The translations under genes were made by a program, and so were the position numbers. Shown here piece after piece: positions 6,678 through 60,223 of a stretch of 64,000 bases of DNA. The DNA comes from an uncultured Candidatus Saccharibacteria bacterium (GTDB taxonomy: Bacteria > Patescibacteriota > Minisyncoccia > Phycocordibacterales > UBA1006). The notes under the pieces were generated by a model. That model searched no databases. It had not been told where the DNA came from and worked only from the letters and a program-made list of their open reading frames with translations. The stretch lies in contig CAYGJA010000001.1 in assembly GCA_964350165.1 (NCBI GenBank), positions 86,823 through 150,822 of the forward strand, given 5' to 3'. Position 1 is the first letter of the stretch, and the number at the start of each line of letters is the position of its first letter.

Positions 6678-6965
6678 TTAGTTATTGTCTTCGACAACAA
6701 CATTTACGATTTTTCGTCGCTTAGTGGCTCCATTAAAAGACAACTTTCGTTTGCTTTCAAATTTTACCGTTCCATCGACAAGGGAGAACAGGGTGTCATC
6801 TTTTCCTTTGGAAACGTTGACTCCTGGCATAATCTTACTGCCTCGCTGGCGCACGATAATAGCACCAGGCTTGGCCTTTTGACCATCAGCAAGCTTTACT
6901 CCGAGATATTGTGGGTTGGAGTCTCGCAATACACGCGATGATCCTCCGGCTTTCCTATGTGCCAT
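6678..6965 (-). CDS. rpmA: 50S ribosomal protein L27
   Basis: [24 protein letters not shown]... is the canonical L27 N-terminus. The ORF-track 5' extension to 7091 is rejected, and no rplU lies upstream. Confidence 0.9.
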
Positions 6966-7008
6966 ACGTGATACAATGCTGTCAGACAGCTGATTAATTA
7001 CTGAAAAC

Positions 7009-7383
7009 ATGGAAAGTCTACACAAAATCAAAGGAAAAATCAACCCAAGAGCCCTTACTTTTATACTCATGTGCCTAGTTTTCATAGCCACGGCTATTGG
7101 GTCTTTTGCTCTAGGCCGAATATCGGCCTCAAAAGAGCAGAAAAACCCTACTAGCCAAGTACGAGGCGTTTTTGTTGATACCAGCGCCTCAGACGTCTAT
7201 TTTGAGGCAGAGGAGGCACGTACGACTTCGCCTAAGTCCATTGTGGCCTCAGTAAATGGCACCAGGTACTACCCAAAAGACTGCAAAGCGGCGAACAGCA
7301 TTAACCCCGAAAATCAAATCTGGTTTTCTAATGAAAACGAAGCCAAAATGGCGGGATATACCTTGTCCAAGAGCTGCGACTAG
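7009..7383 (+). CDS. Hypothetical membrane-anchored small protein; C-terminal motif is weakly Ada-Zn-binding-like but carries only two Cys
   Basis: N-terminal TM ([19 protein letters not shown]). The C-terminal YYPKDC...[21 protein letters not shown] resembles the second half of the Ada N-terminal metal-binding domain but lacks the Cys4 set. Divergent from rpmA. Confidence 0.4.
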
Positions 7384-7419
7384 TTTTCGAACCCCAAGAA
7401 CATACTCAATTAAATAAGA

Positions 7420-7629
7420 TTGACTTATTTTTTAAATATTGTATAAAAAATCCATGCATTACTGCACAAATCACAAGCTAATTACTTACACCTCCGCGAA
7501 TCAAATCGTAGGGAGCTTTGTAATGAGCTTAACTTGTGATGCTGTGTATGCGATCTAACTCCTAAAAATACACCGAAAGATGGATATAGAACATCACCAG
7601 TGAAGCACTCCTGGTGATGTTCTTTTTTT
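7420..7629 (+). ncRNA. Candidate small RNA or cis-acting leader, defined by a promoter, about 175 nt of structured RNA and an intrinsic terminator
   Basis: TTGACT-16-TATAAA promoter at about 7420-7447, and a long imperfect stem between tcacaagctaattac and gtaatgagcttaacttgtga. A CCUCC stretch lies between the arms. The terminator gaacatcaccag-tgaagcactc-ctggtgatgttc + T7 is at about 7589-7629, 33 nt before the GNAT start. Confidence 0.35.
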
Positions 7630-7662
7630 CTCAATCTTTTCTTTCACAAAAAAATAATTCTT

Positions 7663-8355
7663 ATGAAAAATCTAAAAGACTTCTTACTGGAACACATTGA
7701 GCCGGGACTACCCGAACCCTGTATCGCCTTTGGCATGATAGGCGACAGCTGCCGACTAGGAGCGGCTCATCCGGCTTATGCCGAGACGTACTGGCGCCTC
7801 ATCAACGAAGAACACCTGGGCCTAGGTCGACGTGGACCAATTGGGTATACAGACGAACTCAACTGGATCCAAAGAATTTCTGAACGAGGTGGGCGAATGC
7901 AAGTTCAAGATAATTATTCGTTTTGCATTTTTGCACCTACAGGGAAATTACCAATCGGAATGATCAGCCTCCATCGCACACAAGAGGATGGTCAGTCTGT
8001 GTGGCACACTGGCACCTTTATCGGCAAGCCCTGGCAACGACAAGGTATTGGTACTCAAGCTAAAATGTTTCTACTACGCTGGGTTAGCCTCAATTTTAGC
8101 CCTAGCGAAATATCAGAAATTTTCTCAACGGTATATCCGTTTAATACTGGATCACTAAAAACCCAACAGAAATGCGGCTACGTGGTGGTCCAGCAAAATG
8201 AACAACAGCCCAAGACTCATTATCGCAACGGGCAACCATACCAGGAGGTCTTACTCAAGGTAATCCCAGGAGTAAGATGGCTTGAGAATTACTGGAATCC
8301 ATATGCCCAAAAACACAATTTAAAAAAATGGGACCCAAAGGAGCTAGATAGCTAA
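7663..8355 (+). CDS. GNAT-family N-acetyltransferase (RimL-like)
   Basis: Motif-A-like WQRQGIGTQA and a GNAT-like overall pattern. 230 aa. Confidence 0.55.
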   Translation: MKNLKDFLLEHIEPGLPEPCIAFGMIGDSCRLGAAHPAYAETYWRLINEEHLGLGRRGPIGYTDELNWIQRISERGGRMQVQDNYSFCIFAPTGKLPIGMISLHRTQEDGQSVWHTGTFIGKPWQRQGIGTQAKMFLLRWVSLNFSPSEISEIFSTVYPFNTGSLKTQQKCGYVVVQQNEQQPKTHYRNGQPYQEVLLKVIPGVRWLENYWNPYAQKHNLKKWDPKELDS

Positions 8356-50999: not shown

Positions 51000-51908
51000 T
51001 CACCCCTCCACAAAAAAGTCTTCGTCGAGTTGCTTGATTTCGTAGGTGCTTTGAATTTGCACACCGATTCCAAAACGATACATCAAATCTGCCAACTGGA
51101 TCCCCGAGATTAGAATGATAGTATGGTGGGCTTCGCGCGCTTTTTGGATGGCCTTGTCGTCAAAGTCTGCCGTCGTAACAAAAATTCCTTTTTGCGTGTC
51201 ACCAGCCATAGCCCCGATAAAATTTCGGATGTCAGGCTCGCGGACTTTGTTTTCGGAATAGCGCTTGGCCTGTACGTAAATCTTTTCCAAGCCCAGCTGA
51301 TCCTGATTGATAACACCATCAATCCCGCCATCGCCCGATTTTGGCGTACCCAAGAATTCTCCGTACCCCATCTTTTGAAATAATTGCAAGACTATCCGCT
51401 CGAAGTCATATGGATCTACCTGTTTTAGCCTTTGCAACAGCTCGGCTTTGGTCTCGCGTTCCAGATTGGCGATCCCGCTTTCGATCAGGTCCGTTGGAGT
51501 TGATTCTTCGCTGTTGGCATGGTCACCATCTTCCGTCTCGTGTACAGCTTTACCTTTTGCAATTTCGTGCGCCTGAAAATCAGGGTCGCTCTTTAGTTGG
51601 GCTAGTGTGAGTGTGCCAGAATCTAGTACGGCTCGCCCCTTGTCGGTGATTGCCACTATTCCGCGCTCAGGGGACGCCAGCATCTTTGCTTGCTTGAGAT
51701 ATGCCTTGCCCCATCCAACCCGATTGAGCACCAATTGATCGCCAGACTTGGTTTTTTGTTGAAGGATTTCTGACGGCAGGTCCGCATAAAAGCGATCCCG
51801 GACCGCACGCCGCAAATCACCGGTCGCCAGGGGTCCGCTATCGGCCAACACATGCAATATTGGCAAAAAAGTCTCATGGAATTTTGGAAGTTTTTTCATA
51901 ATTGACAT
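51000..51908 (-). CDS. mrr: Mrr-family type IV restriction endonuclease (Mrr_N winged helix + Mrr_cat)
   Basis: Catalytic-domain pattern GTPKSGDGGIDGVI...YVQAKRY. Confidence 0.8.
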   Translation of the reverse strand: MSIMKKLPKFHETFLPILHVLADSGPLATGDLRRAVRDRFYADLPSEILQQKTKSGDQLVLNRVGWGKAYLKQAKMLASPERGIVAITDKGRAVLDSGTLTLAQLKSDPDFQAHEIAKGKAVHETEDGDHANSEESTPTDLIESGIANLERETKAELLQRLKQVDPYDFERIVLQLFQKMGYGEFLGTPKSGDGGIDGVINQDQLGLEKIYVQAKRYSENKVREPDIRNFIGAMAGDTQKGIFVTTADFDDKAIQKAREAHHTIILISGIQLADLMYRFGIGVQIQSTYEIKQLDEDFFVEG

Positions 51909-51913
51909 ATATT

Positions 51914-54877
51914 CTATTTAACACCAGCAGTCTTCCGAACAATAAACTCAAAAATGCGCTCGTTGACAAATTTTTTCAGCTCGGGATTTTCGTCCAGTTT
52001 TCGATACAGGTTAAAGTGCTCATCGAGCATGCCGACAAGGCGGTCCTGGAAGAGTTCGTCAAATTTAATCTTTGCTGCATCTGGGCTATTGGCCGCCAAC
52101 GACCCTTGTAGTGCTTCGTTTTGTAACAATGAAGCACTAAGAGAATTTAAGATTAGCTTATCTTCATTGGTGAATTCTGCTCCGTATCTTTCATTAATCT
52201 CTTTGATGATTTTTGAAAGCGGGTCTTTTTCATCACCCTCCTCGTCTCCGCCATTTTTCCCTGCCCCCATCGGCTCTAGGTCAGAATCTTCGTCATCAAG
52301 GATGATCTGTAATTCGTGCTTGTCTTTTATGGCATAAGAATCAACATCTGCCGCTTCAAGTACATCGATTGGCAACTCGGTACCGCCTTGCGGGAGCTTG
52401 CGCCGCAAAAACTTCAAGAACAAAAAGAGGCGCTCCAGATCAGGGTCTTCAAAGGTCACAATCTGTGACACAAACGCATATTTCCGTACATAATCACCAG
52501 CCCGTGACTTGAATTCTGCCATCTCTTGTTCGGTAAAGCGCTTGACAGCACGCTCTACAACCGCGTCCAGCGCAGCATTGAGGACCGAGGGCTGGGCCCC
52601 CATCAGATACTGATCCACAAATCCCCTCATTTCTAGGTCAGAAAATAGCTTGTAGCCCTGGATGTCTCTCTCTAGGTCGTGCAGAATATTCGGATCGGTT
52701 GCCTCAGATAGCAGCGTTGCCTTGTAATACGGCTGGAATGATTTTTTGATGTCTTCTGCACCATTGACAAAGTCAAGCACAAACACGTCTTCCTTGTCGT
52801 AGCGCGTACGATTCAGACGAGATAATGTTTGCACCGCACTTACGCCAGATAGTTTTTTGTCGACATACATAGAAGCAAGCAGCGGCTGATCAAAGCCTGT
52901 TTGGAATTTCTCGGCAACGATAAGAAATTTGTAGTCGTCTTTTTTAAACTCATTTGCCGTGTTTGCCTCGGGTACACCGTTCATTCCGGCTTCGGTATAC
53001 TCCAGTCCGCCGTCAACTACGGTGCCAGAAAATGCCACCAATGATTTGTAGGGATAGTTTTGCTCTGTCAAATATTCATCAAAGGCACGCTTGAATCGCA
53101 CCGCGTGCAAGCGTGACTTCGTCACGACCATTGCTTTGGCTTGCCCGCTGATTTCGCTGGCAATCTTTTCAGAGAAATGCTCGACAATAATTTTGACCTT
53201 TTTGGCGATAACCTGCTCGTGCTTTTCGACATAGCCCACCAACAAGCGCTGGGCTTTCTTTTTGTCATATTCGGGGTCTTCTGCCACTTTTTTCAGCAAT
53301 GCAAAATAAGTCTGATAGGTGGTGTAATTTTTGAGTACATCGACAATAAAGCCTTCTTCAATGGCTTGCTTCATAGAGTACAGCGAAAACGGCATATGCT
53401 TACCGGTCAGCGGGTCTTCTATTCCAAACAGCTCGAGCGTTTTTTGTTTTGGGGTTGCCGTAAACGCAAAAAAGCTGATATTCGGCGCATGTACTTTTCG
53501 CGCCTTCATGCGATCGATCAGCAAATCCTCTGCAGTCTTAAATGCTTGTTCGGCCTTTGTGTCTGCCTCGGCAGCGTCTTCTAGGGTAAGGGCCTGGCGC
53601 AAGTCTGCCATGCTGTCACCGCTGGTTGACGAATGCGCCTCGTCGATAATTACCGCAAATCGTTTGCCGGCCGTTTGCTCGATTGCATCCACAATAACTG
53701 GAAATTTTTGCAGTGTACTCGAGATTATTCTGGTTCCCTTCTCTAGTGCATCACGCAATTCAGCAGAGCTCTCGACGTGCTTTACCACACCATCGACCTG
53801 CTCAAAGCTTCGGATGGTTTCGGCAAGTTGTGAATCCAGCACGCGCCGATCAGTAATCACCACCACCCCGTCAAAAACCGAAGCATCACTCGCATCATGA
53901 AGCTCTGCCAGTCGATGCGCGGTCCAGGCAATGGTCATGCTCTTGCCTGATCCGGCACTGTGCTGCACCAGATAGTTCTGGCCCGCACCACGGGCCTGTG
54001 CATCTGTTACCAATCGCCTGACAGTCTGCATCTGGTGATATCGGGGAAAGGTCAAAACTTCCTTTTTTGACTTGCGCCCATTTTTATCTACTTTTTCCTC
54101 GGCCTGGAGGGCAATAAAGTTTGCCAACAAGTCCATCAAGCTACCACGACCCCACACTTCTTCCCACAGATAATGGGTCTTGTATTTGCCCGTGACTACG
54201 GGGTTGCCGGATCCATTATTGTCACCGCGGTTGAATGGTAAAAAGTATGTCGACAAACCCGAGAGGCGTGTGGTCATGTACACCTGCTCGGTATCCACTG
54301 CAAAGTGGGTCAAACAGCGCTTGAACAACAATAGTTTTTCGCGTTGATCGCGATCGCTCTTGTATTGTCGCATAGCATGCAGCGCCGTCTGACCTGTCAG
54401 CTGATTCTTTAATTCAACGGTAAATATCGGCAAGCCATTCACAAACAGCACCATGTCGATACTGTTTTCGTTTTGCTGACTGTATTTTACCTGCCGTGTT
54501 ACCGACAAAATATTCGCCTCATAATCCGCAAGGGTTTCCGGGTTCATTCCCGTTTGTGGCTGCCAATATGCCAAGCGGAATTTAACCCCGCGATCTTTGA
54601 TCCCCTCGCGCAACACTGCCAAGAGGCCACGGTCTGCGATTTCCCCATCCAATCGTTCCAGAAATTTCTGCCCTACCTCGTCGCCGTATTGATCGGAAAG
54701 TTTTTTCCAATTCTCAGATTGCGTTTTTTGTACAAATTCCAAAACCAGCTCTGTATCCATGCAGAGGCCTTTGTCGTACGCGCTCGCTCCGCGAGCGCGG
54801 TACCCGTGCAGGTTGACGAGCTCGCTTTCGATAAACTCCTCGAATCCTGATTCTTTTGTGTTAGTTTTTTTGGTCAT
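51914..54877 (-). CDS. hsdR: Type I restriction enzyme R subunit
   Basis: 987 aa; the SF2 motor motifs QHSAGSGKSMTIAW (motif I) and IIDEAHSS (DEAH) in an HsdR architecture. Confidence 0.9.
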   Translation of the reverse strand: MTKKTNTKESGFEEFIESELVNLHGYRARGASAYDKGLCMDTELVLEFVQKTQSENWKKLSDQYGDEVGQKFLERLDGEIADRGLLAVLREGIKDRGVKFRLAYWQPQTGMNPETLADYEANILSVTRQVKYSQQNENSIDMVLFVNGLPIFTVELKNQLTGQTALHAMRQYKSDRDQREKLLLFKRCLTHFAVDTEQVYMTTRLSGLSTYFLPFNRGDNNGSGNPVVTGKYKTHYLWEEVWGRGSLMDLLANFIALQAEEKVDKNGRKSKKEVLTFPRYHQMQTVRRLVTDAQARGAGQNYLVQHSAGSGKSMTIAWTAHRLAELHDASDASVFDGVVVITDRRVLDSQLAETIRSFEQVDGVVKHVESSAELRDALEKGTRIISSTLQKFPVIVDAIEQTAGKRFAVIIDEAHSSTSGDSMADLRQALTLEDAAEADTKAEQAFKTAEDLLIDRMKARKVHAPNISFFAFTATPKQKTLELFGIEDPLTGKHMPFSLYSMKQAIEEGFIVDVLKNYTTYQTYFALLKKVAEDPEYDKKKAQRLLVGYVEKHEQVIAKKVKIIVEHFSEKIASEISGQAKAMVVTKSRLHAVRFKRAFDEYLTEQNYPYKSLVAFSGTVVDGGLEYTEAGMNGVPEANTANEFKKDDYKFLIVAEKFQTGFDQPLLASMYVDKKLSGVSAVQTLSRLNRTRYDKEDVFVLDFVNGAEDIKKSFQPYYKATLLSEATDPNILHDLERDIQGYKLFSDLEMRGFVDQYLMGAQPSVLNAALDAVVERAVKRFTEQEMAEFKSRAGDYVRKYAFVSQIVTFEDPDLERLFLFLKFLRRKLPQGGTELPIDVLEAADVDSYAIKDKHELQIILDDEDSDLEPMGAGKNGGDEEGDEKDPLSKIIKEINERYGAEFTNEDKLILNSLSASLLQNEALQGSLAANSPDAAKIKFDELFQDRLVGMLDEHFNLYRKLDENPELKKFVNERIFEFIVRKTAGVK

Positions 54878-54881
54878 GATC

Positions 54882-55745
54882 TTATTCTTCTTTATCTTTT
54901 TTTTCTACTCCCTTTTTGGTTTTCTTTTCTAAAATCTTACTCATGCTCTCGGTAAAACTCTTATTTTCTTCTTTTGTCTTTACAAGACGATTTACCAAAA
55001 ATATCAACACCCCCTTCACAGCATCAGCATACTCAAGACATTCCTCATCTGATTCTGCGTGCAAGCCCTCACTCAAAGCAGAATGCAAAGCAGCAAGAGG
55101 GTTTACTCCGCCAGGCCGCAATGATTCTGGCAAAAGACCCTTCACGATATCGATTTTTTCTTGAGTTATCGTAGTCTTTTGTACTTCCTCCAAGGCTTTC
55201 TGATATTCTCCTTTTTTATCTTCTGGAATAAGCTCTCCAACAGATACCAAAAGCTCGTCAATGATTTCTTCCACTATACGGCGAAAATATGAAAATGCCC
55301 CGATACCATATCCTTGAGATTCACAAATTAAACCGCGCTTATAGTATTCTGACCGATCGCCAAGTGTTTGCTCGAGCTCCTTGTCAATATCAATACTCCA
55401 CCCTGGAATTTGACCAACTTTTTCTAAAACTAAGACATCTCGATCTTTGTCAATTTTTTCTTTTTGAAAATGTATCAAAAAGACCCTCAAACCTTTATTA
55501 CAAGAAGCACATTTATAACGCAAATCCCGAACTCGCCCATCAACAATCTCATTCGAATATTGTTCGTGATAATCGTTTACCATATTAAAAGTTTGATCAG
55601 AGCCACAAACAGCACAAAACATCTTAATAGCTGGTTTTGGTAAAGTACCTGCCTCTAAACCAGCCCTATGGCTCCTGTGCCAACTTTTATCAGTCTTGTA
55701 TTTTTTATACAGAGGATAATTTTCTAAAAATTCTTTATTTGCCAT
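54882..55745 (-). CDS. Unknown protein embedded in the type I R-M operon: N-terminal C4 zinc ribbon + alpha-helical C-terminal domain
   Basis: CAVCGSDQ...(27 aa)...CASCNKG forms a CxxC...CxxC ribbon. It lies 4 nt after hsdS and 4 nt before hsdR. No confident family assignment; possibly DUF4145-like. Confidence 0.6.
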   Translation of the reverse strand: MANKEFLENYPLYKKYKTDKSWHRSHRAGLEAGTLPKPAIKMFCAVCGSDQTFNMVNDYHEQYSNEIVDGRVRDLRYKCASCNKGLRVFLIHFQKEKIDKDRDVLVLEKVGQIPGWSIDIDKELEQTLGDRSEYYKRGLICESQGYGIGAFSYFRRIVEEIIDELLVSVGELIPEDKKGEYQKALEEVQKTTITQEKIDIVKGLLPESLRPGGVNPLAALHSALSEGLHAESDEECLEYADAVKGVLIFLVNRLVKTKEENKSFTESMSKILEKKTKKGVEKKDKEE

Positions 55746-55749
55746 AAGT

Positions 55750-57081
55750 TTATACTTTCACCTTCCCCGTCACCACATGCGAGATCAAAGAAGATTTAAA
55801 TTCTTGTAATAATTCGATCGACTTTTCGACTTTTTTAATTGATTGATCGTAATCTGACATTTTTTCTTTAATAAATTCAACTATTCTTTGCTGCTCAGCA
55901 ACATCTGGGAATACTATATTTTCTGTGAAATAGTTTTTTATATCTAAGTTTTGTATTCCAGTATTTTGCTTAATGTATTTTGTATTAATTCTTCCAGAAT
56001 ATAGTGTCGATAAATAAAAAACTAGAAATCTTGAAGAAAGAGTTTCTGGATCGACCCTAACAATATCTATGAAATTAGCACACGTCATTTTTTCATCAGA
56101 ATCAAAAAGTATCGCGCGACCAACCGGCGTCTTTTCGCCTCCGCCTGATTTCTCCACCAAAATGTCACCAGCCTTTAGGATTTTAAATTTAGAGATTCGA
56201 GGATTATTCCTTACCGTTTCTACATCTTCAAATGACAAGTTTTGATAATCAAAATCAGCAACACGTAAACACCTTATATCGTGTTCATCGTTTTCCATAT
56301 TATCACCCCAAACCCCCGATTCAATTTGTGTTACCAGATGTTTTATTTTCTTCACTTCCCATCCCTTCGGAATCTTCCCAATCCATTCAACACCACTATC
56401 AACCAACTCAACACTTGCATCCAAGCCTTTCGTCACCGCCTGATTGATCACCGCGGTGCGTTTTTCGCGCAAGAGCGCGATGAGCTTTTTCTTTTTCTTG
56501 ATCAAGCTATCAATCCGCGCTGTTTTCTCATCGAGGTAGGCGACGATTGATAGTTGGGTTTGTTTATCTGGTAAGGTAATGGGTAAATATTTTAAATTGT
56601 GAAAATTTAATGTCTGTCGAACTCCGCCACCCAGGTTGTAAAAAACTTTCTGTAGATCATAAGAGTGAAGCAGGTAATACACATACTTTTGCTGAACTTC
56701 GTTATGTAATTGCAAGCCTAAATATGCGGAAGTAATAATTCCACTTTGATCTTTCACAAAACCTACACGCAAACTTTTTTTGTCGTTCTGCAAATCAGTT
56801 AAGCGCAGAACGATATTATTTTTATGTACGATTTGATATGTATTAAAAGACTCTGGCAATAGACCCCCAACATGATCAATATCTTTTTGTACAATTCTCC
56901 CGTAACTAAGCGATAGTAAGTTTTGATTCTGGCCCTTAGTATTTTTTTCTTGATTTTCATCAGCGATTCCACGAAGATACTGCACCGCCCAGCCCCTCGG
57001 AATCTCACCCAACCACTCAACCCCCGAATCTTTGTATTCGGTATAGGTGTCGTATTGGTTTGTCAGCTTAAGTGTTTTCAT
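55750..57081 (-). CDS. hsdS: Type I R-M specificity subunit with two target-recognition domains
   Basis: Duplicated TRD architecture with conserved central and C-terminal helical repeats (LDEKTARIDSLIKKKKKLIALLREKR... / FIKEKMSDYDQSIKKVEKSIELLQEFK...). Confidence 0.85.
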   Translation of the reverse strand: MKTLKLTNQYDTYTEYKDSGVEWLGEIPRGWAVQYLRGIADENQEKNTKGQNQNLLSLSYGRIVQKDIDHVGGLLPESFNTYQIVHKNNIVLRLTDLQNDKKSLRVGFVKDQSGIITSAYLGLQLHNEVQQKYVYYLLHSYDLQKVFYNLGGGVRQTLNFHNLKYLPITLPDKQTQLSIVAYLDEKTARIDSLIKKKKKLIALLREKRTAVINQAVTKGLDASVELVDSGVEWIGKIPKGWEVKKIKHLVTQIESGVWGDNMENDEHDIRCLRVADFDYQNLSFEDVETVRNNPRISKFKILKAGDILVEKSGGGEKTPVGRAILFDSDEKMTCANFIDIVRVDPETLSSRFLVFYLSTLYSGRINTKYIKQNTGIQNLDIKNYFTENIVFPDVAEQQRIVEFIKEKMSDYDQSIKKVEKSIELLQEFKSSLISHVVTGKVKV

Positions 57082-57083
57082 AT

Positions 57084-59072
57084 CTAGAGACCCTTCAAAA
57101 GTTCCAACAATTCATTTTCGACCTCTTCGATCTCGCTTTCGATCGCTTCTAGTGCGCGCGGTGGTTCGTAGGTATAGAAATACCGCGTAAATGGGATTTC
57201 ATATCCAACGACGCCAATCTCGCCGTCTTTTTCGTCACGCTTTGATTCGTCGATCCATGCGTCTGGTACATACGGCTTTACCTCACATTCGAAATATTCG
57301 TCTACATCGGTACCAAATGGTACGTTTTCATGATCACGGAGAGTGCTGTCTGCTTCTGGATTCCCGTCTTTGTCGGTGCAGATATCTGCATTTTCGTCAC
57401 GCTCCGACAGAGCGTTCAGAATTGCTTTTTTGACGGGTGATTTTAGTTTTAAATCTTTGGTATGTTTTTCAAATACTTTCAAGAACTCTTCGCGATTAGT
57501 GAACAGCTGGGTGCTTGGGAAATTGTGCAGCGATTCCAAAATCACCTCTTTCTCTTTTGGGTTTAGTTTCTCAAACGCTTTCTCCTCCTTCAAAAGCTCG
57601 ACACGTTCTGGTGAGGCTTGAAAATTCAGGCGAAGTGGTCGCTCGATCGTTACCTTGCGATAAGCAAAGTCTGTTGTGTTAAAAATCTTTGAATGTTCGG
57701 TTTCCTTGAAGTCTTCGTATAATTTGATGATTTTTTCTCGTGCTGTTTCGTCGACTTCTTTCCTTTTTTGTCCGAGGCTCTTTCGCATTTTTTTGTACAT
57801 TTCGCGGGCATCGATCAGCTGGACTTTGCCCTTGCGTTCGGTCGCCTTCTTGTTCGAAATGAACCACAGATACGTATTGATTCCGGTGTTATAGAACAGC
57901 TGGTCTGGCAAAGCCACAATGGCTTCCAAGAGGTCCTTTTCCAAAATCCAACGGCGAATTTCGCTTTCGCCACTACCGGCATCGCCTGTAAATAGCGGGG
58001 ATCCATTGTGAACGATTGCCAGCCGAGCACCACCGTCAGAAGCGGGCTTCATCTTTGCGATTAGGTGCTGTGTAAACAGCAGCTGTCCATCCGACACGCG
58101 TGGCGTGCCGGCGCCAAAACGCCCAGCATAGCCACGCTTTGCCTCACGTTCGACAGCGTCTTTGTCTTTTTTCCAGTCAGTACCGTAGGGTGGATTACTG
58201 AGACCATAGTCAAAGACCTCGCCAAAAAACTGATCGTTGGCCAGGGTGCTGGCCTTGGAGTGGTCTTTTTCGCCACCCCGAATCAGGTCGGCGTTCTCTC
58301 CCTTGATCAGCATGTCTGATTTTGCAATTGCGTACGAAACAGAATTCAATTCTTGGCCATACAGATAAATCGCGGCTTGTTTGTTGATTTGCCCATGAAC
58401 GTATTCTTTGGCAAGGGTTAGCATGCCGCCGGTACCGCAAGCAGGGTCATAGACTTTTTTGATCACGTGCGGGTTTGTGAGGTCTTTTTTGTCCGGGTTA
58501 AAAAGAAGTGGCACCATCAGTGCGATCACATCGCGCGGCGTATAATGCTCCCCTGCTGTCTCGTTAGACATTTCAGAGAATTTTCGTAGTAATTCTTCAA
58601 AGATGGCACCCATTTCATGGCTATCTACCTGGGATGGGTGGAGGTCAACCTTGTTGAGCTCTTGGATAATCAAATAGAGTAAATTCCCACCTTCGAGGCG
58701 TTCGATTTGTTTATCAAAATCAAATTTTTCGATGATATCGCGAATATTCGAGCTATAATCGTTCAAATATTTTTTGAAATTTTTTGTGATATTGCGTGGA
58801 TCTTCGGTGAGTTTTTTGAAGTCATACTCAGATACATTGAAAAAATCATAGCCAGAAGTCTTTTTGAGAATAGGTTCCAGGTCTTTTACTTTTCCCGACC
58901 ACTGATGGTAGTGATCCAAAACTTTCGCCTTGGTTCCGGACAGGACACTATCAAGTCGCTTGATAACCACAAGGGGCAGAATAACGTCGGCATATTCATG
59001 CTGTTTCCAGCCGCCACGCAGAATGTCCGCGATGTTCCATATCATTGAAGTTTTTTGTTGAAAGTTTTCCAT
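57084..59072 (-). CDS. hsdM: Type I R-M N6-adenine DNA methyltransferase subunit
   Basis: GEHYTPRDV, VYDPACGTGGML (motif I) and LSNPPYG (NPPY motif IV). Confidence 0.9.
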   Translation of the reverse strand: MENFQQKTSMIWNIADILRGGWKQHEYADVILPLVVIKRLDSVLSGTKAKVLDHYHQWSGKVKDLEPILKKTSGYDFFNVSEYDFKKLTEDPRNITKNFKKYLNDYSSNIRDIIEKFDFDKQIERLEGGNLLYLIIQELNKVDLHPSQVDSHEMGAIFEELLRKFSEMSNETAGEHYTPRDVIALMVPLLFNPDKKDLTNPHVIKKVYDPACGTGGMLTLAKEYVHGQINKQAAIYLYGQELNSVSYAIAKSDMLIKGENADLIRGGEKDHSKASTLANDQFFGEVFDYGLSNPPYGTDWKKDKDAVEREAKRGYAGRFGAGTPRVSDGQLLFTQHLIAKMKPASDGGARLAIVHNGSPLFTGDAGSGESEIRRWILEKDLLEAIVALPDQLFYNTGINTYLWFISNKKATERKGKVQLIDAREMYKKMRKSLGQKRKEVDETAREKIIKLYEDFKETEHSKIFNTTDFAYRKVTIERPLRLNFQASPERVELLKEEKAFEKLNPKEKEVILESLHNFPSTQLFTNREEFLKVFEKHTKDLKLKSPVKKAILNALSERDENADICTDKDGNPEADSTLRDHENVPFGTDVDEYFECEVKPYVPDAWIDESKRDEKDGEIGVVGYEIPFTRYFYTYEPPRALEAIESEIEEVENELLELLKGL

Positions 59073-59086
59073 ACACCTTTTGTTTC

Positions 59087-60223
59087 TTAATCAATAAATA
59101 AGTCTACGTACTCTTTGAGGTAAAAGATGCGATCTTTTTTCATACCGGTTTTCTCTTTGAGAATATTCAGATCGACCAGTTCTCGTACTAATTTGGAAGC
59201 CGTAGGGAAGCTCACCGACAGCATGCTCTCGACTTCGCGAATAGTAAACATGGGGCGAGAAAATGCTTGCCGCAGGAGCTCCTTGGCGTTGATTTGCTTT
59301 TGTGGGGTCATACTAGAGGTGATAAGAGACTCATAGCGGGCTCGCAAATCTATGATTCGCTCGAGAGTTTCGCGTGCATTTTTTGCGGTTTGTGCAATCC
59401 CATTTAGAAAGAACTTGAGCCAGTGCTCGATGTCGTTGGATTCGCGGACACGCGAGAGTGCGTCATAGTATTGTGGACGATGCTTTTCAAAGTAGTCTGA
59501 TATGTAGAGCGTAGGTTTTTGTAGGATACCAAGGCTGATCAGGTGCAAAACAATAAGCAGTCGCCCGATACGTCCGTTACCGTCTAGGAATGGGTGGATG
59601 GTCTCAAATTGGTAGTGGCTTATACCAATGCGGACAAGATCAGGAATGCCGAGGTCGTTGTTGTGCCAAAACCTTTCTAAATCTGACAAATAATCAGACA
59701 CACCCATGTGGTGTGGAGGAATAAAAACAGCATCCGCCAGCGAAGATCCTCCAATCCAGTTTTGGCTTGTGCGAATCTCGCCCGGGTGCTTGCTAAAGCC
59801 CCGAACCCCTGAAAGCAGGTGCTTGTGTGCCCCCTTGAGAAGACGAACCGAAAGCGGCAAGCGATCGAGTTCTTGTGTGGCAAAATTAATAGCCTTTACG
59901 TAGTTCTGCACCTCTTCCCAATCGTCTCGTTTTTCGGGATCAATTTCGATTTCAGGAAGCAAGGCTTCGTCGAACTTGGTTTGCGTTCCTTCGATCATGC
60001 TTGAGGTGGTGGCCTCTTTAGCGATATGCATTTTAATAAAGAAATCTACGTCTGGAACCAGTTTAGAGTAGGCGTTGAGTTCACCAAGATAGCGCATTGC
60101 CGAAGCCAAAAGCAGGTCGATCTGGGGATCGTGCCAGACAAAACCTTGATTGACCAGCGATGGCTCAAAACTTTTGTATTGCTCTCGCTGAATATGCGTT
60201 CCTGCCTTAAATTTCTTAGACAT
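59087..60223 (-). CDS. fic: Fic/DOC family protein (AMPylation-type HPFxDGNGR motif) with a C-terminal wHTH
   Basis: HPFLDGNGRIGRLL. It is the first gene of the hsdM-hsdS-hsdR transcription unit. Confidence 0.8.
   Translation of the reverse strand: MSKKFKAGTHIQREQYKSFEPSLVNQGFVWHDPQIDLLLASAMRYLGELNAYSKLVPDVDFFIKMHIAKEATTSSMIEGTQTKFDEALLPEIEIDPEKRDDWEEVQNYVKAINFATQELDRLPLSVRLLKGAHKHLLSGVRGFSKHPGEIRTSQNWIGGSSLADAVFIPPHHMGVSDYLSDLERFWHNNDLGIPDLVRIGISHYQFETIHPFLDGNGRIGRLLIVLHLISLGILQKPTLYISDYFEKHRPQYYDALSRVRESNDIEHWLKFFLNGIAQTAKNARETLERIIDLRARYESLITSSMTPQKQINAKELLRQAFSRPMFTIREVESMLSVSFPTASKLVRELVDLNILKEKTGMKKDRIFYLKEYVDLFID

Follow-up and report, generated by a model that had tools for sequence, protein, structure and literature searches.

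A zinc-ribbon gene between hsdS and hsdR of a Candidatus Saccharibacteria type I restriction-modification operon: a candidate abortive-infection gene from a large unnamed family

The locus and the architecture of the encoded protein

The stretch analysed here (the window, 64,000 nt from contig CAYGJA010000001.1 of an uncultured Candidatus Saccharibacteria bacterium) carries a type I restriction-modification (RM) operon in which an open reading frame (ORF) of 287 aa plus a stop codon, which we label X, is lodged between the specificity gene hsdS and the restriction gene hsdR. The call is based on the ORF list of the window, where X begins with ATG, and this start is backed by homologues opening with MANK(K/E)FLE at the identical residue. 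Only 4 nt separate the hsdS stop from X and another 4 nt separate X from the hsdR start, all on a shared strand, in agreement with a first-pass annotation of this DNA. Because of these 4-nt gaps, co-transcription of X with the hsd genes is a reasonable inference; in addition, a consensus scan listed neither promoter-like nor terminator-like sites at the two junctions flanking X, with region-wide site counts at chance level. Family scans gave the block order Fic-hsdM-hsdS-X-hsdR-Mrr, with all genes on the minus strand:

54882..55745, minus strand: X (ORF list; 100% identical to database entry P0001; match to phrog_25239, E=6.7e-41)
55750..57081, minus strand: hsdS, type I specificity subunit, upstream of X (Methylase_S; PADLOC Specificity_I, 3e-103)
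57084..59072, minus strand: hsdM, type I methyltransferase (HsdM_N and N6_Mtase; PADLOC MTase_I, 2e-273)
51914..54877, minus strand: hsdR, type I restriction subunit, downstream of X (HSDR_N, ResIII, SWI2_SNF2, T1R_D3-like)
59087..60223, minus strand: SoFic-type Fic protein heading the block (Fic_N and Fic; PADLOC SoFic, 7.8e-115)
51000..51908, minus strand: type IV restriction enzyme of the Mrr family, closing the block (Mrr_N and Mrr_cat; PADLOC mREase_IV, 1.5e-54)

Base composition is uneven along this block, with a GC content of 37.3% for X and about 37% for hsdS vs. 45-48% for hsdM and hsdR (45-49% for hsdM, hsdR, Fic and Mrr together). The low GC of the hsdS-X segment (window 55000-57000) suggests exchange or acquisition separate from the rest of the operon.

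An AlphaFold2 model of X, built from 25 sequences with a mean pLDDT of 81.5, comprises a beta-rich zinc-ribbon domain (residues 1-113) of six strands (15-23, 40-44, 49-55, 72-79, 86-97 and 102-113) that holds both CxxC knuckles, and an all-helical portion (residues 122-286) with helices at 122-144, 148-172, 175-190, 194-204, 216-228 and 233-286. The Cys pairs reside in the peptides MFCAVCGSDQTF (C44, C47) and YKCASCNKGL (C79, C82), so the ribbon followed by a helical domain, as proposed in the first-pass annotation, is borne out by both peptides and model. Library scans likewise upheld its remark that methyltransferase, nuclease and ATPase motifs are lacking, as they yielded no match to any such family, and the sequence has no Walker A motif. 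The elements of the protein, with residue conservation counted in an alignment of 272 family members, are as follows:

55407..55745, minus strand: beta-rich zinc-ribbon domain, residues 1-113, including a conserved N-terminal FLExYPLYKK motif; proposed sensor or oligomerisation domain (AlphaFold2 strands, conservation)
55605..55616, minus strand: first CxxC knuckle, C44-A-V-C47 (DNA read directly; C44 262/272, C47 265/272)
55500..55511, minus strand: second CxxC knuckle, C79-A-S-C82 (C79 267/272, C82 269/272)
55398..55421, minus strand: interdomain linker K109-V-G-Q-I-P-G-W116, with K109, G111, Q112 and P114 near-invariant (alignments; paired by hhalign with the conserved Pro-rich linker of RAZR-like proteins)
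54951..55394, minus strand: C-terminal helical domain, residues 118-265, of DUF4145/HEPN-like topology plus an extra helix at 175-190; proposed effector (AlphaFold2 helices vs. the model of a RAZR-like protein)
55269..55289, minus strand: helix-2 motif Y153-F-R155-R156-I-V-E159, in which R155 pairs with the invariant helix-2 Arg of DUF4145 (R..E motif) by hhalign (Y153 271/272, R155 270/272, R156 263/272, E159 263/272)
55059..55088, minus strand: motif L220-H221-S-A-L-S225-E-G227-L-H229, in which H229 pairs with the catalytic His of RAZR-type HEPN domains (H229 270/272, S225 269/272)
54885..54950, minus strand: C-terminal tail rich in Lys and Glu, residues 266-287, its length differing among homologues (alignment; lower pLDDT)

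Residues conserved in at least 95% of the 272 sequences comprise C44, C47, C79, C82, K109, G111, Q112 and P114, together with E142, G147, Y153, R155, R156, E159, K197, P206, N215, S225, G227, H229 and C236 in the helical domain. The near-invariant polar set of the helical domain points to an active or ligand-binding site and not to a decayed domain. X is a real gene under purifying selection, given 1052 homologues at E<=1e-3 in a word-indexed protein search and about 20 positions conserved at the 95% level.

A widespread family in varied genomic company

X belongs to a large, unnamed family that is spread over many bacterial and archaeal phyla. The 120 homologues listed from the word-indexed search share 48-62% identity with X, are devoid of Pfam domains and, where a source gives them a name, are termed 'hypothetical', except for one evident misnaming. 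An exhaustive profile search of 1.84 billion representatives recovered 3359 clusters (50% identity) at E<=1e-3 and 891 at E<=1e-30, almost all of them single-gene proteins of 260-310 aa. In one-genome-per-species data, the gene was found in 270 species, the bacterial carriers including Patescibacteria, Bacteroidota, Alpha-, Gamma- and Deltaproteobacteria, Planctomycetota, Chloroflexi, Cyanobacteria and Leptospira, and the archaeal carriers Lokiarchaeum, Bathyarchaeia and Methanoperedens.

The company kept by X was surveyed with an iterative search using RM seeds over 6 kb around X in 79 species loci (L numbers below denote loci of this and the other sets), the resulting counts being a lower bound set by the seeds. 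An RM gene was found in 16 of these loci and none was detected in 63; by group, RM neighbours occurred in 13/15 Patescibacteria loci vs. 3/64 others. With type I partners, X always sits between hsdS and hsdR, while with type III partners it lies between or beside mod and res; other partners are a type IIG MmeI-like fusion enzyme and a solitary methyltransferase near a MazF toxin. Additional inserts in X-bearing operons include MazF, an AbiJ_NTD4 protein, Hypoth_Ymh, Bro-N, DUF2321, DUF3800 and NYN. The conservation check proposed in the first-pass annotation was run, and the hsdS-X-hsdR arrangement recurs in L004-L007, L108 and L117: Fic-hsdM-hsdS-X-hsdR is complete in the related Patescibacteria loci L005-L007, L108 and L117, and L004, the contig of which starts inside hsdS, reads hsdS-(AbiJ_NTD4 gene)-X-hsdR. 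Identity among the closest operons amounts to 70-75% for HsdM, 66-67% for HsdR and 53-57% for X. Because the arrangement is conserved among the closest relatives, these comparisons indicate that X is a stably inherited part of this hsd operon lineage. A degenerate insertion was rejected on account of the strong conservation of X and the recurrence of hsdS-X-hsdR in related Patescibacteria operons.

A Fic gene lies directly upstream of hsdM in the window (59087-60223, minus strand) and recurs upstream of hsdM or type III mod in the X-bearing Patescibacteria loci L005-L007, L108, L110 and L117; Fic appears to be a standard constituent of these RM islands.

A second comparison set consisted of metagenomic operons of the same hsd family with 39-54% HsdR identity, among which 8 loci include hsdS. 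X is absent from 8/8 of these; hsdS abuts hsdR in 5/8, and different cargo occupies the slot in 3/8, as exemplified by a protein of about 520 aa with an ALRHAIVH motif (R-x4-H, HEPN-like) followed by an IS200/RAYT-like ORF (L123, and L124 2601-4821) and, in another slot, by a 455-aa membrane protein. The partners of X vary in type, most X loci have no detected RM gene and the slot holds other cargo; X therefore behaves like a mobile accessory gene of its own, with a tendency to settle in defence loci, and the hsdS-hsdR junction is a cargo slot. X is not a restriction-enzyme subunit, and the idea of an obligatory Hsd subunit was rejected in view of its absence from related operons and the predominance of homologues with no detected RM neighbour. 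Of the earlier proposal that X is a defence-associated component, the defence association stands, as evidenced by RM, other defence or mobile-element company, but X is not a component of the type I system as such, with 63/79 loci having no detected RM gene.

The operon position of X brings to mind a guard of the PrrC kind, i.e., a latent toxin held by Hsd (or Mod/Res) and freed when a phage anti-restriction protein disables the enzyme. We consider this idea unlikely, even though it is the main rival to the autonomous sensor-effector proposed below, and the two are not mutually exclusive. PrrC and RloC serve as a back-up to restriction with an abortive-infection logic, and prrC is genetically linked to the EcoprrI type Ic locus (PMC1484252, PMC3458546), much as X is inserted in an hsd locus with 4-nt couplings, is linked to RM genes in nearly all of the Patescibacteria loci and is often found lodged in the mod-res or the hsdS-hsdR junction. 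However, a single binding interface is hard to picture when the partners fall into unrelated types (I, III and IIG, and a methyltransferase standing alone), the 6-kb survey detected no RM gene in 61/64 loci outside the Patescibacteria, and copies on phage and small plasmids have no RM partner. The association in Patescibacteria may be simply due to RM loci being the sole defence islands in those small genomes. X also lacks the ABC-ATPase regulatory domain of the PrrC/RloC kind and has no sequence or family similarity to these proteins; a PrrC/RloC homologue was rejected on the missing ATPase domain, and the PrrC/RloC family search suggested in the first-pass annotation, when run, gave no match in library scans.

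Beyond the RM-linked loci, the annotated neighbourhoods comprised six plasmid contexts and one phage context. The phage copy, found in one record (Rhizobium phage vB_RleA_TRX32-1) with 29.6% identity over 92% of the query, belongs to an Autographiviridae prophage (L081 4941-5810), in which it is placed between the genes for portal (Gp8) and major capsid and is read from the opposite strand. Distant copies are present on seven plasmids, where the neighbours are McrBC, sieB with a BrnT/CopG toxin-antitoxin pair, Shedu with IS3, a group II intron, Rpn and ImmA, or prophage remnants. Portal proteins are triggers of RAZR, and the placement of the phage copy beside a portal gene may or may not be coincidence. 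Two distant plasmid relatives (L082 3659-4495 on NZ_CP045607.2 and L084 3980-4777 on NZ_CP065917.1) bear the RefSeq label 'short-chain dehydrogenase'; relatives so labelled gave no dehydrogenase family match in Pfam, and the label looks like a propagated misannotation.

These phage and plasmid copies, a patchy phyletic distribution and a GC content below that of flanking genes would also suit an anti-defence or selfish mobile-element gene, e.g., an anti-restriction factor, with no benefit to the host. We hold this to be highly improbable. X is stably co-inherited and translationally coupled in chromosomal RM operons, with its divergence tracking that of HsdR and HsdM, and such co-inheritance is hard to square with an inhibitor of those very enzymes; furthermore, the phage copy is laid out as an opposite-strand accessory gene (moron), which is typical of prophage-encoded defence.

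Resemblance to RAZR and other known systems

The first-pass annotation regarded X as uncharacterised, and searches for a known family bear this out: X itself has no match in Pfam (E<=0.1), NCBIfam or PADLOC, 25 family members (E<=10) and 4 distant relatives (E<=1) have no relevant match in Pfam, phmmer and hmmsearch found no match for X among PDB sequences, and Foldseek found no significant match for the X model in PDB and BFVD. A viral BFVD entry of 236 aa, U3PE05, had a Foldseek probability of 0.99 with E=2e-3 and a TM of 0.33-0.38 and may be a viral relative. Among library families, phrog_25239, a PHROG with no assigned function, is the sole one to contain X. X matches it over residues 34-276 (profile positions 51-291 of 294), as do 26/26 tested family members with E down to 2.6e-55 for the profile as such; it is un-annotated, and only one INPHARED phage record has a homologue.

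In domain plan, X most resembles RAZR (PD-T7-4), a ring-activated zinc-finger RNase (PDB 9y9c) in which a Cys4 zinc ribbon is joined to a DUF4145/HEPN RNase; RAZR acts by abortive infection, becomes active once polymerised around ring-shaped phage proteins such as portal and requires both R146 and H154 for defence (PMC13017515). For comparison, a verified DUF4145 set was assembled from plasmid genes found with an HsdR N-terminal sequence as query (10/11 confirmed by Pfam). The resulting alignment matched the RAZR chain 9y9c in PDB, and a fragment of that chain led to 22 plasmid genes annotated as DUF4145, of which 8 proteins formed one RAZR-like alignment; a further 120 relatives from the protein database, all with PF13643, expanded it to a 128-sequence profile.

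Several lines of evidence link X to these proteins: 1) since 8/8 RAZR-like plasmid proteins match phrog_1305 over its full length (best 1.8e-34), this PHROG represents the RAZR-like family, and it is also matched by 14/26 X-family members (best 6.3e-7), the window X itself reaching E=0.0025, where its residues 39-169 cover profile positions 14-141; 2) hhalign of a divergent X alignment against the RAZR-like alignments scored 61.5% (E 7.8e-5) and 77.9% (E 1.8e-5), vs. 0.2-0.3% for reversed-template controls; the 173-187 aligned columns are co-linear and extend through both domains, bringing the Cys knuckles and the linker into register and matching R155 to the invariant helix-2 Arg and H229 to the catalytic His; and 3) in an AlphaFold2 model of a RAZR-like protein (pLDDT 90.9), the structural elements succeed one another as they do in X, and an invariant His comes directly after helix 4 in both models. 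Overall, X and RAZR are both single-gene proteins with an N-terminal Cys4 ribbon (CxxC...CxxC), a Pro-containing linker and a helical C-domain in which the helices follow in identical order and helix 2 bears an invariant Arg-x3-Glu/Gln; both are widespread, patchy and present on plasmids and phages. X exceeds RAZR by about 70 residues and differs from it in its larger beta domain and the extra helix at 175-190, in having no Pfam DUF4145 or PADLOC match and in carrying the additional invariant residues E142, Y153, N215, S225 and C236.

A number of results weigh against this link and against an RNase role for X. With two other X alignments, the hhalign score was only 13-20%, and its significance is hence dependent on the alignment; single domains were not significant, the C-domain having an E of about 0.1, equal to the reversed-control level. 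HMMER searches of the X family gave no match at E<=0.01 with the 128-sequence RAZR-like profile (best 0.028), and the 8-sequence profile reached 0.019; the reciprocal search with the X-family profile passed E<=0.01 for one RAZR-like sequence only (E=0.0034). PADLOC, run on X and on the divergent alignment at E<=10, returned only single-member Cas2 matches, the presence of a PD-T7-4 model in PADLOC v2 being unconfirmed. With regard to the catalytic residues, X has the ribbon cysteines, but of the pair R146 and H154 only the His equivalent is conserved: the HEPN motif R-x4-6-H (R-x7-H in RAZR and DUF4145) is absent, R210 is unconserved, and position 221, eight residues before the His in the slot of the catalytic Arg, is His in 152, Tyr in 113 and Phe in 5 of the 272 sequences and never Arg. 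Canonical RNase chemistry is accordingly doubtful for X, as the catalytic Arg is missing. Lastly, phrog_1305, the PHROG linking both families, is labelled 'DNA binding protein'.

DUF4145 (PF13643), a HEPN branch that is fused to zinc ribbons, is found in RM operons and includes BxaP and Ishtar (Anantharaman et al. 2013, PMC3710099), is likewise a helical domain that occurs fused to or beside RM genes and zinc ribbons, and it has the terminal His and the R..E motif of helix 2 in common with X; however, X has LS.G.H in place of the GN.A.H signature. The DUF4145 profile search suggested in the first-pass annotation came out negative: the Pfam DUF4145/HEPN models did not match X, 24 close or 4 distant homologues (E<=1-10), and the bona fide domains used as control did match (10/11). 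This too counts against a HEPN assignment, as does the hhalign comparison of X with verified HsdR-type DUF4145 (0.8%, with 22 columns covering the R..E helix only); X C-domain alignments scored 0.8-1.6% against verified DUF4145, vs. 96.8% for the RAZR-like C-domain as positive control. By the tests run, X is not assignable to DUF4145, PrrC/RloC or RAZR, and its plan is most like that of RAZR-type proteins. Homology of X to RAZR-type proteins is thus suggestive but not established and, even if the link is real, X would be a branch that has diverged strongly and in which the active site has changed. The earlier view of X as undescribed holds in that the family is uncharacterised, but the weak co-linear similarity to the RAZR/PD-T7-4 class makes it not wholly undescribed in kind.

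The missing HEPN Arg, the label of phrog_1305 and the frequent binding of nucleic acids by zinc ribbons would also be consistent with a non-enzymatic nucleic-acid-binding or regulatory protein, e.g., one that tunes the expression or assembly of neighbouring defence genes, with the helical domain doing the binding. We judge such a role to be quite improbable, for several reasons: Pfam scans gave no match to helix-turn-helix or other known DNA-binding families, a mid-operon position is unusual for a controller, the ten or so near-invariant polar residues of the helical domain look like an active or ligand site, and the neighbours vary so widely that there is no constant regulatory target. As for the PHROG label, it is an annotation, and phrog_1305 corresponds to RAZR-like proteins with demonstrated RNase activity (PMC13017515).

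A proposed sensor-effector role

Considering the mobility of X, its defence-rich company and its RAZR-like plan, we postulate that X is an autonomous, horizontally mobile sensor-effector of the abortive-infection type that was captured in an RM cargo slot, a reading to which we assign an even chance. In this scheme, X would be co-expressed with the type I enzyme, Fic and Mrr as a second line of defence, forming one layer of a small defence island. By analogy with RAZR, we surmise that the zinc-ribbon domain may recognise an infection cue, e.g., a phage structural protein, and that this recognition would change the oligomeric state of X, thereby switching on the helical domain. The active helical domain might then damage a host or phage macromolecule, most likely RNA, so that phage production would stop. 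We speculate that this effector is probably a nuclease in which H229 acts with R155, R156 and E159, perhaps together with S225 or C236. That one domain senses and the other acts, as well as the substrate and the defence phenotype of X, is what we infer from these comparisons, and the functional claim draws on genomic context and weak remote similarity. The defence field counts many candidates of this kind.

A bolder extension, which we put forward as improbable at present, is that the X family constitutes a distinct class of single-protein immune effectors with a RAZR-like sensor plan and a different active site (Y153, R155, R156, E159, S225, H229 and C236 in place of R-x7-H), hence a different substrate or chemistry, specifically backing up ATP-dependent restriction enzymes of types I, III and IIG in genome-reduced Patescibacteria and firing when these are inhibited.

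If the sensor-effector proposal is true, thousands of un-annotated genes would gain a testable function, and the RAZR-type design would also cover another branch, one that has diverged far and lacks the canonical HEPN arginine, raising the question of what chemistry is carried out by the conserved His/Arg/Glu/Cys set. The hsdS-hsdR and mod-res junctions are documented here as reusable slots for abortive-infection cargo in Patescibacteria, the defence repertoires of which are poorly known and beyond study in culture. Culturable carriers of family members, namely Flavobacterium, Cellulophaga, Paraperlucidibaca, Psychrobacter and Chryseobacterium, render the hypothesis directly testable.

Three further observations concern the surroundings of X in other genomes. 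In the type III locus L110, a 327-aa ORF with no Pfam match (6868-7851) lies between X and res, and may be a second cargo gene or a partner of X. An ORF of about 150 aa, also with no Pfam match, is found beside X-bearing RM loci in three genomes (L037 6313-6756, L002 and L003), being placed between hsdM and hsdS in L037. Finally, in L115 (4943-7141), an X homologue (P0102) comes right after ruvB and is followed by a 76-aa ORF matching the RuvB winged-helix domain, as if the homologue had been inserted into the 3' end of ruvB, with Bro-N and PDDEXK_3 genes interspersed among ruvC, ruvA and ruvB.

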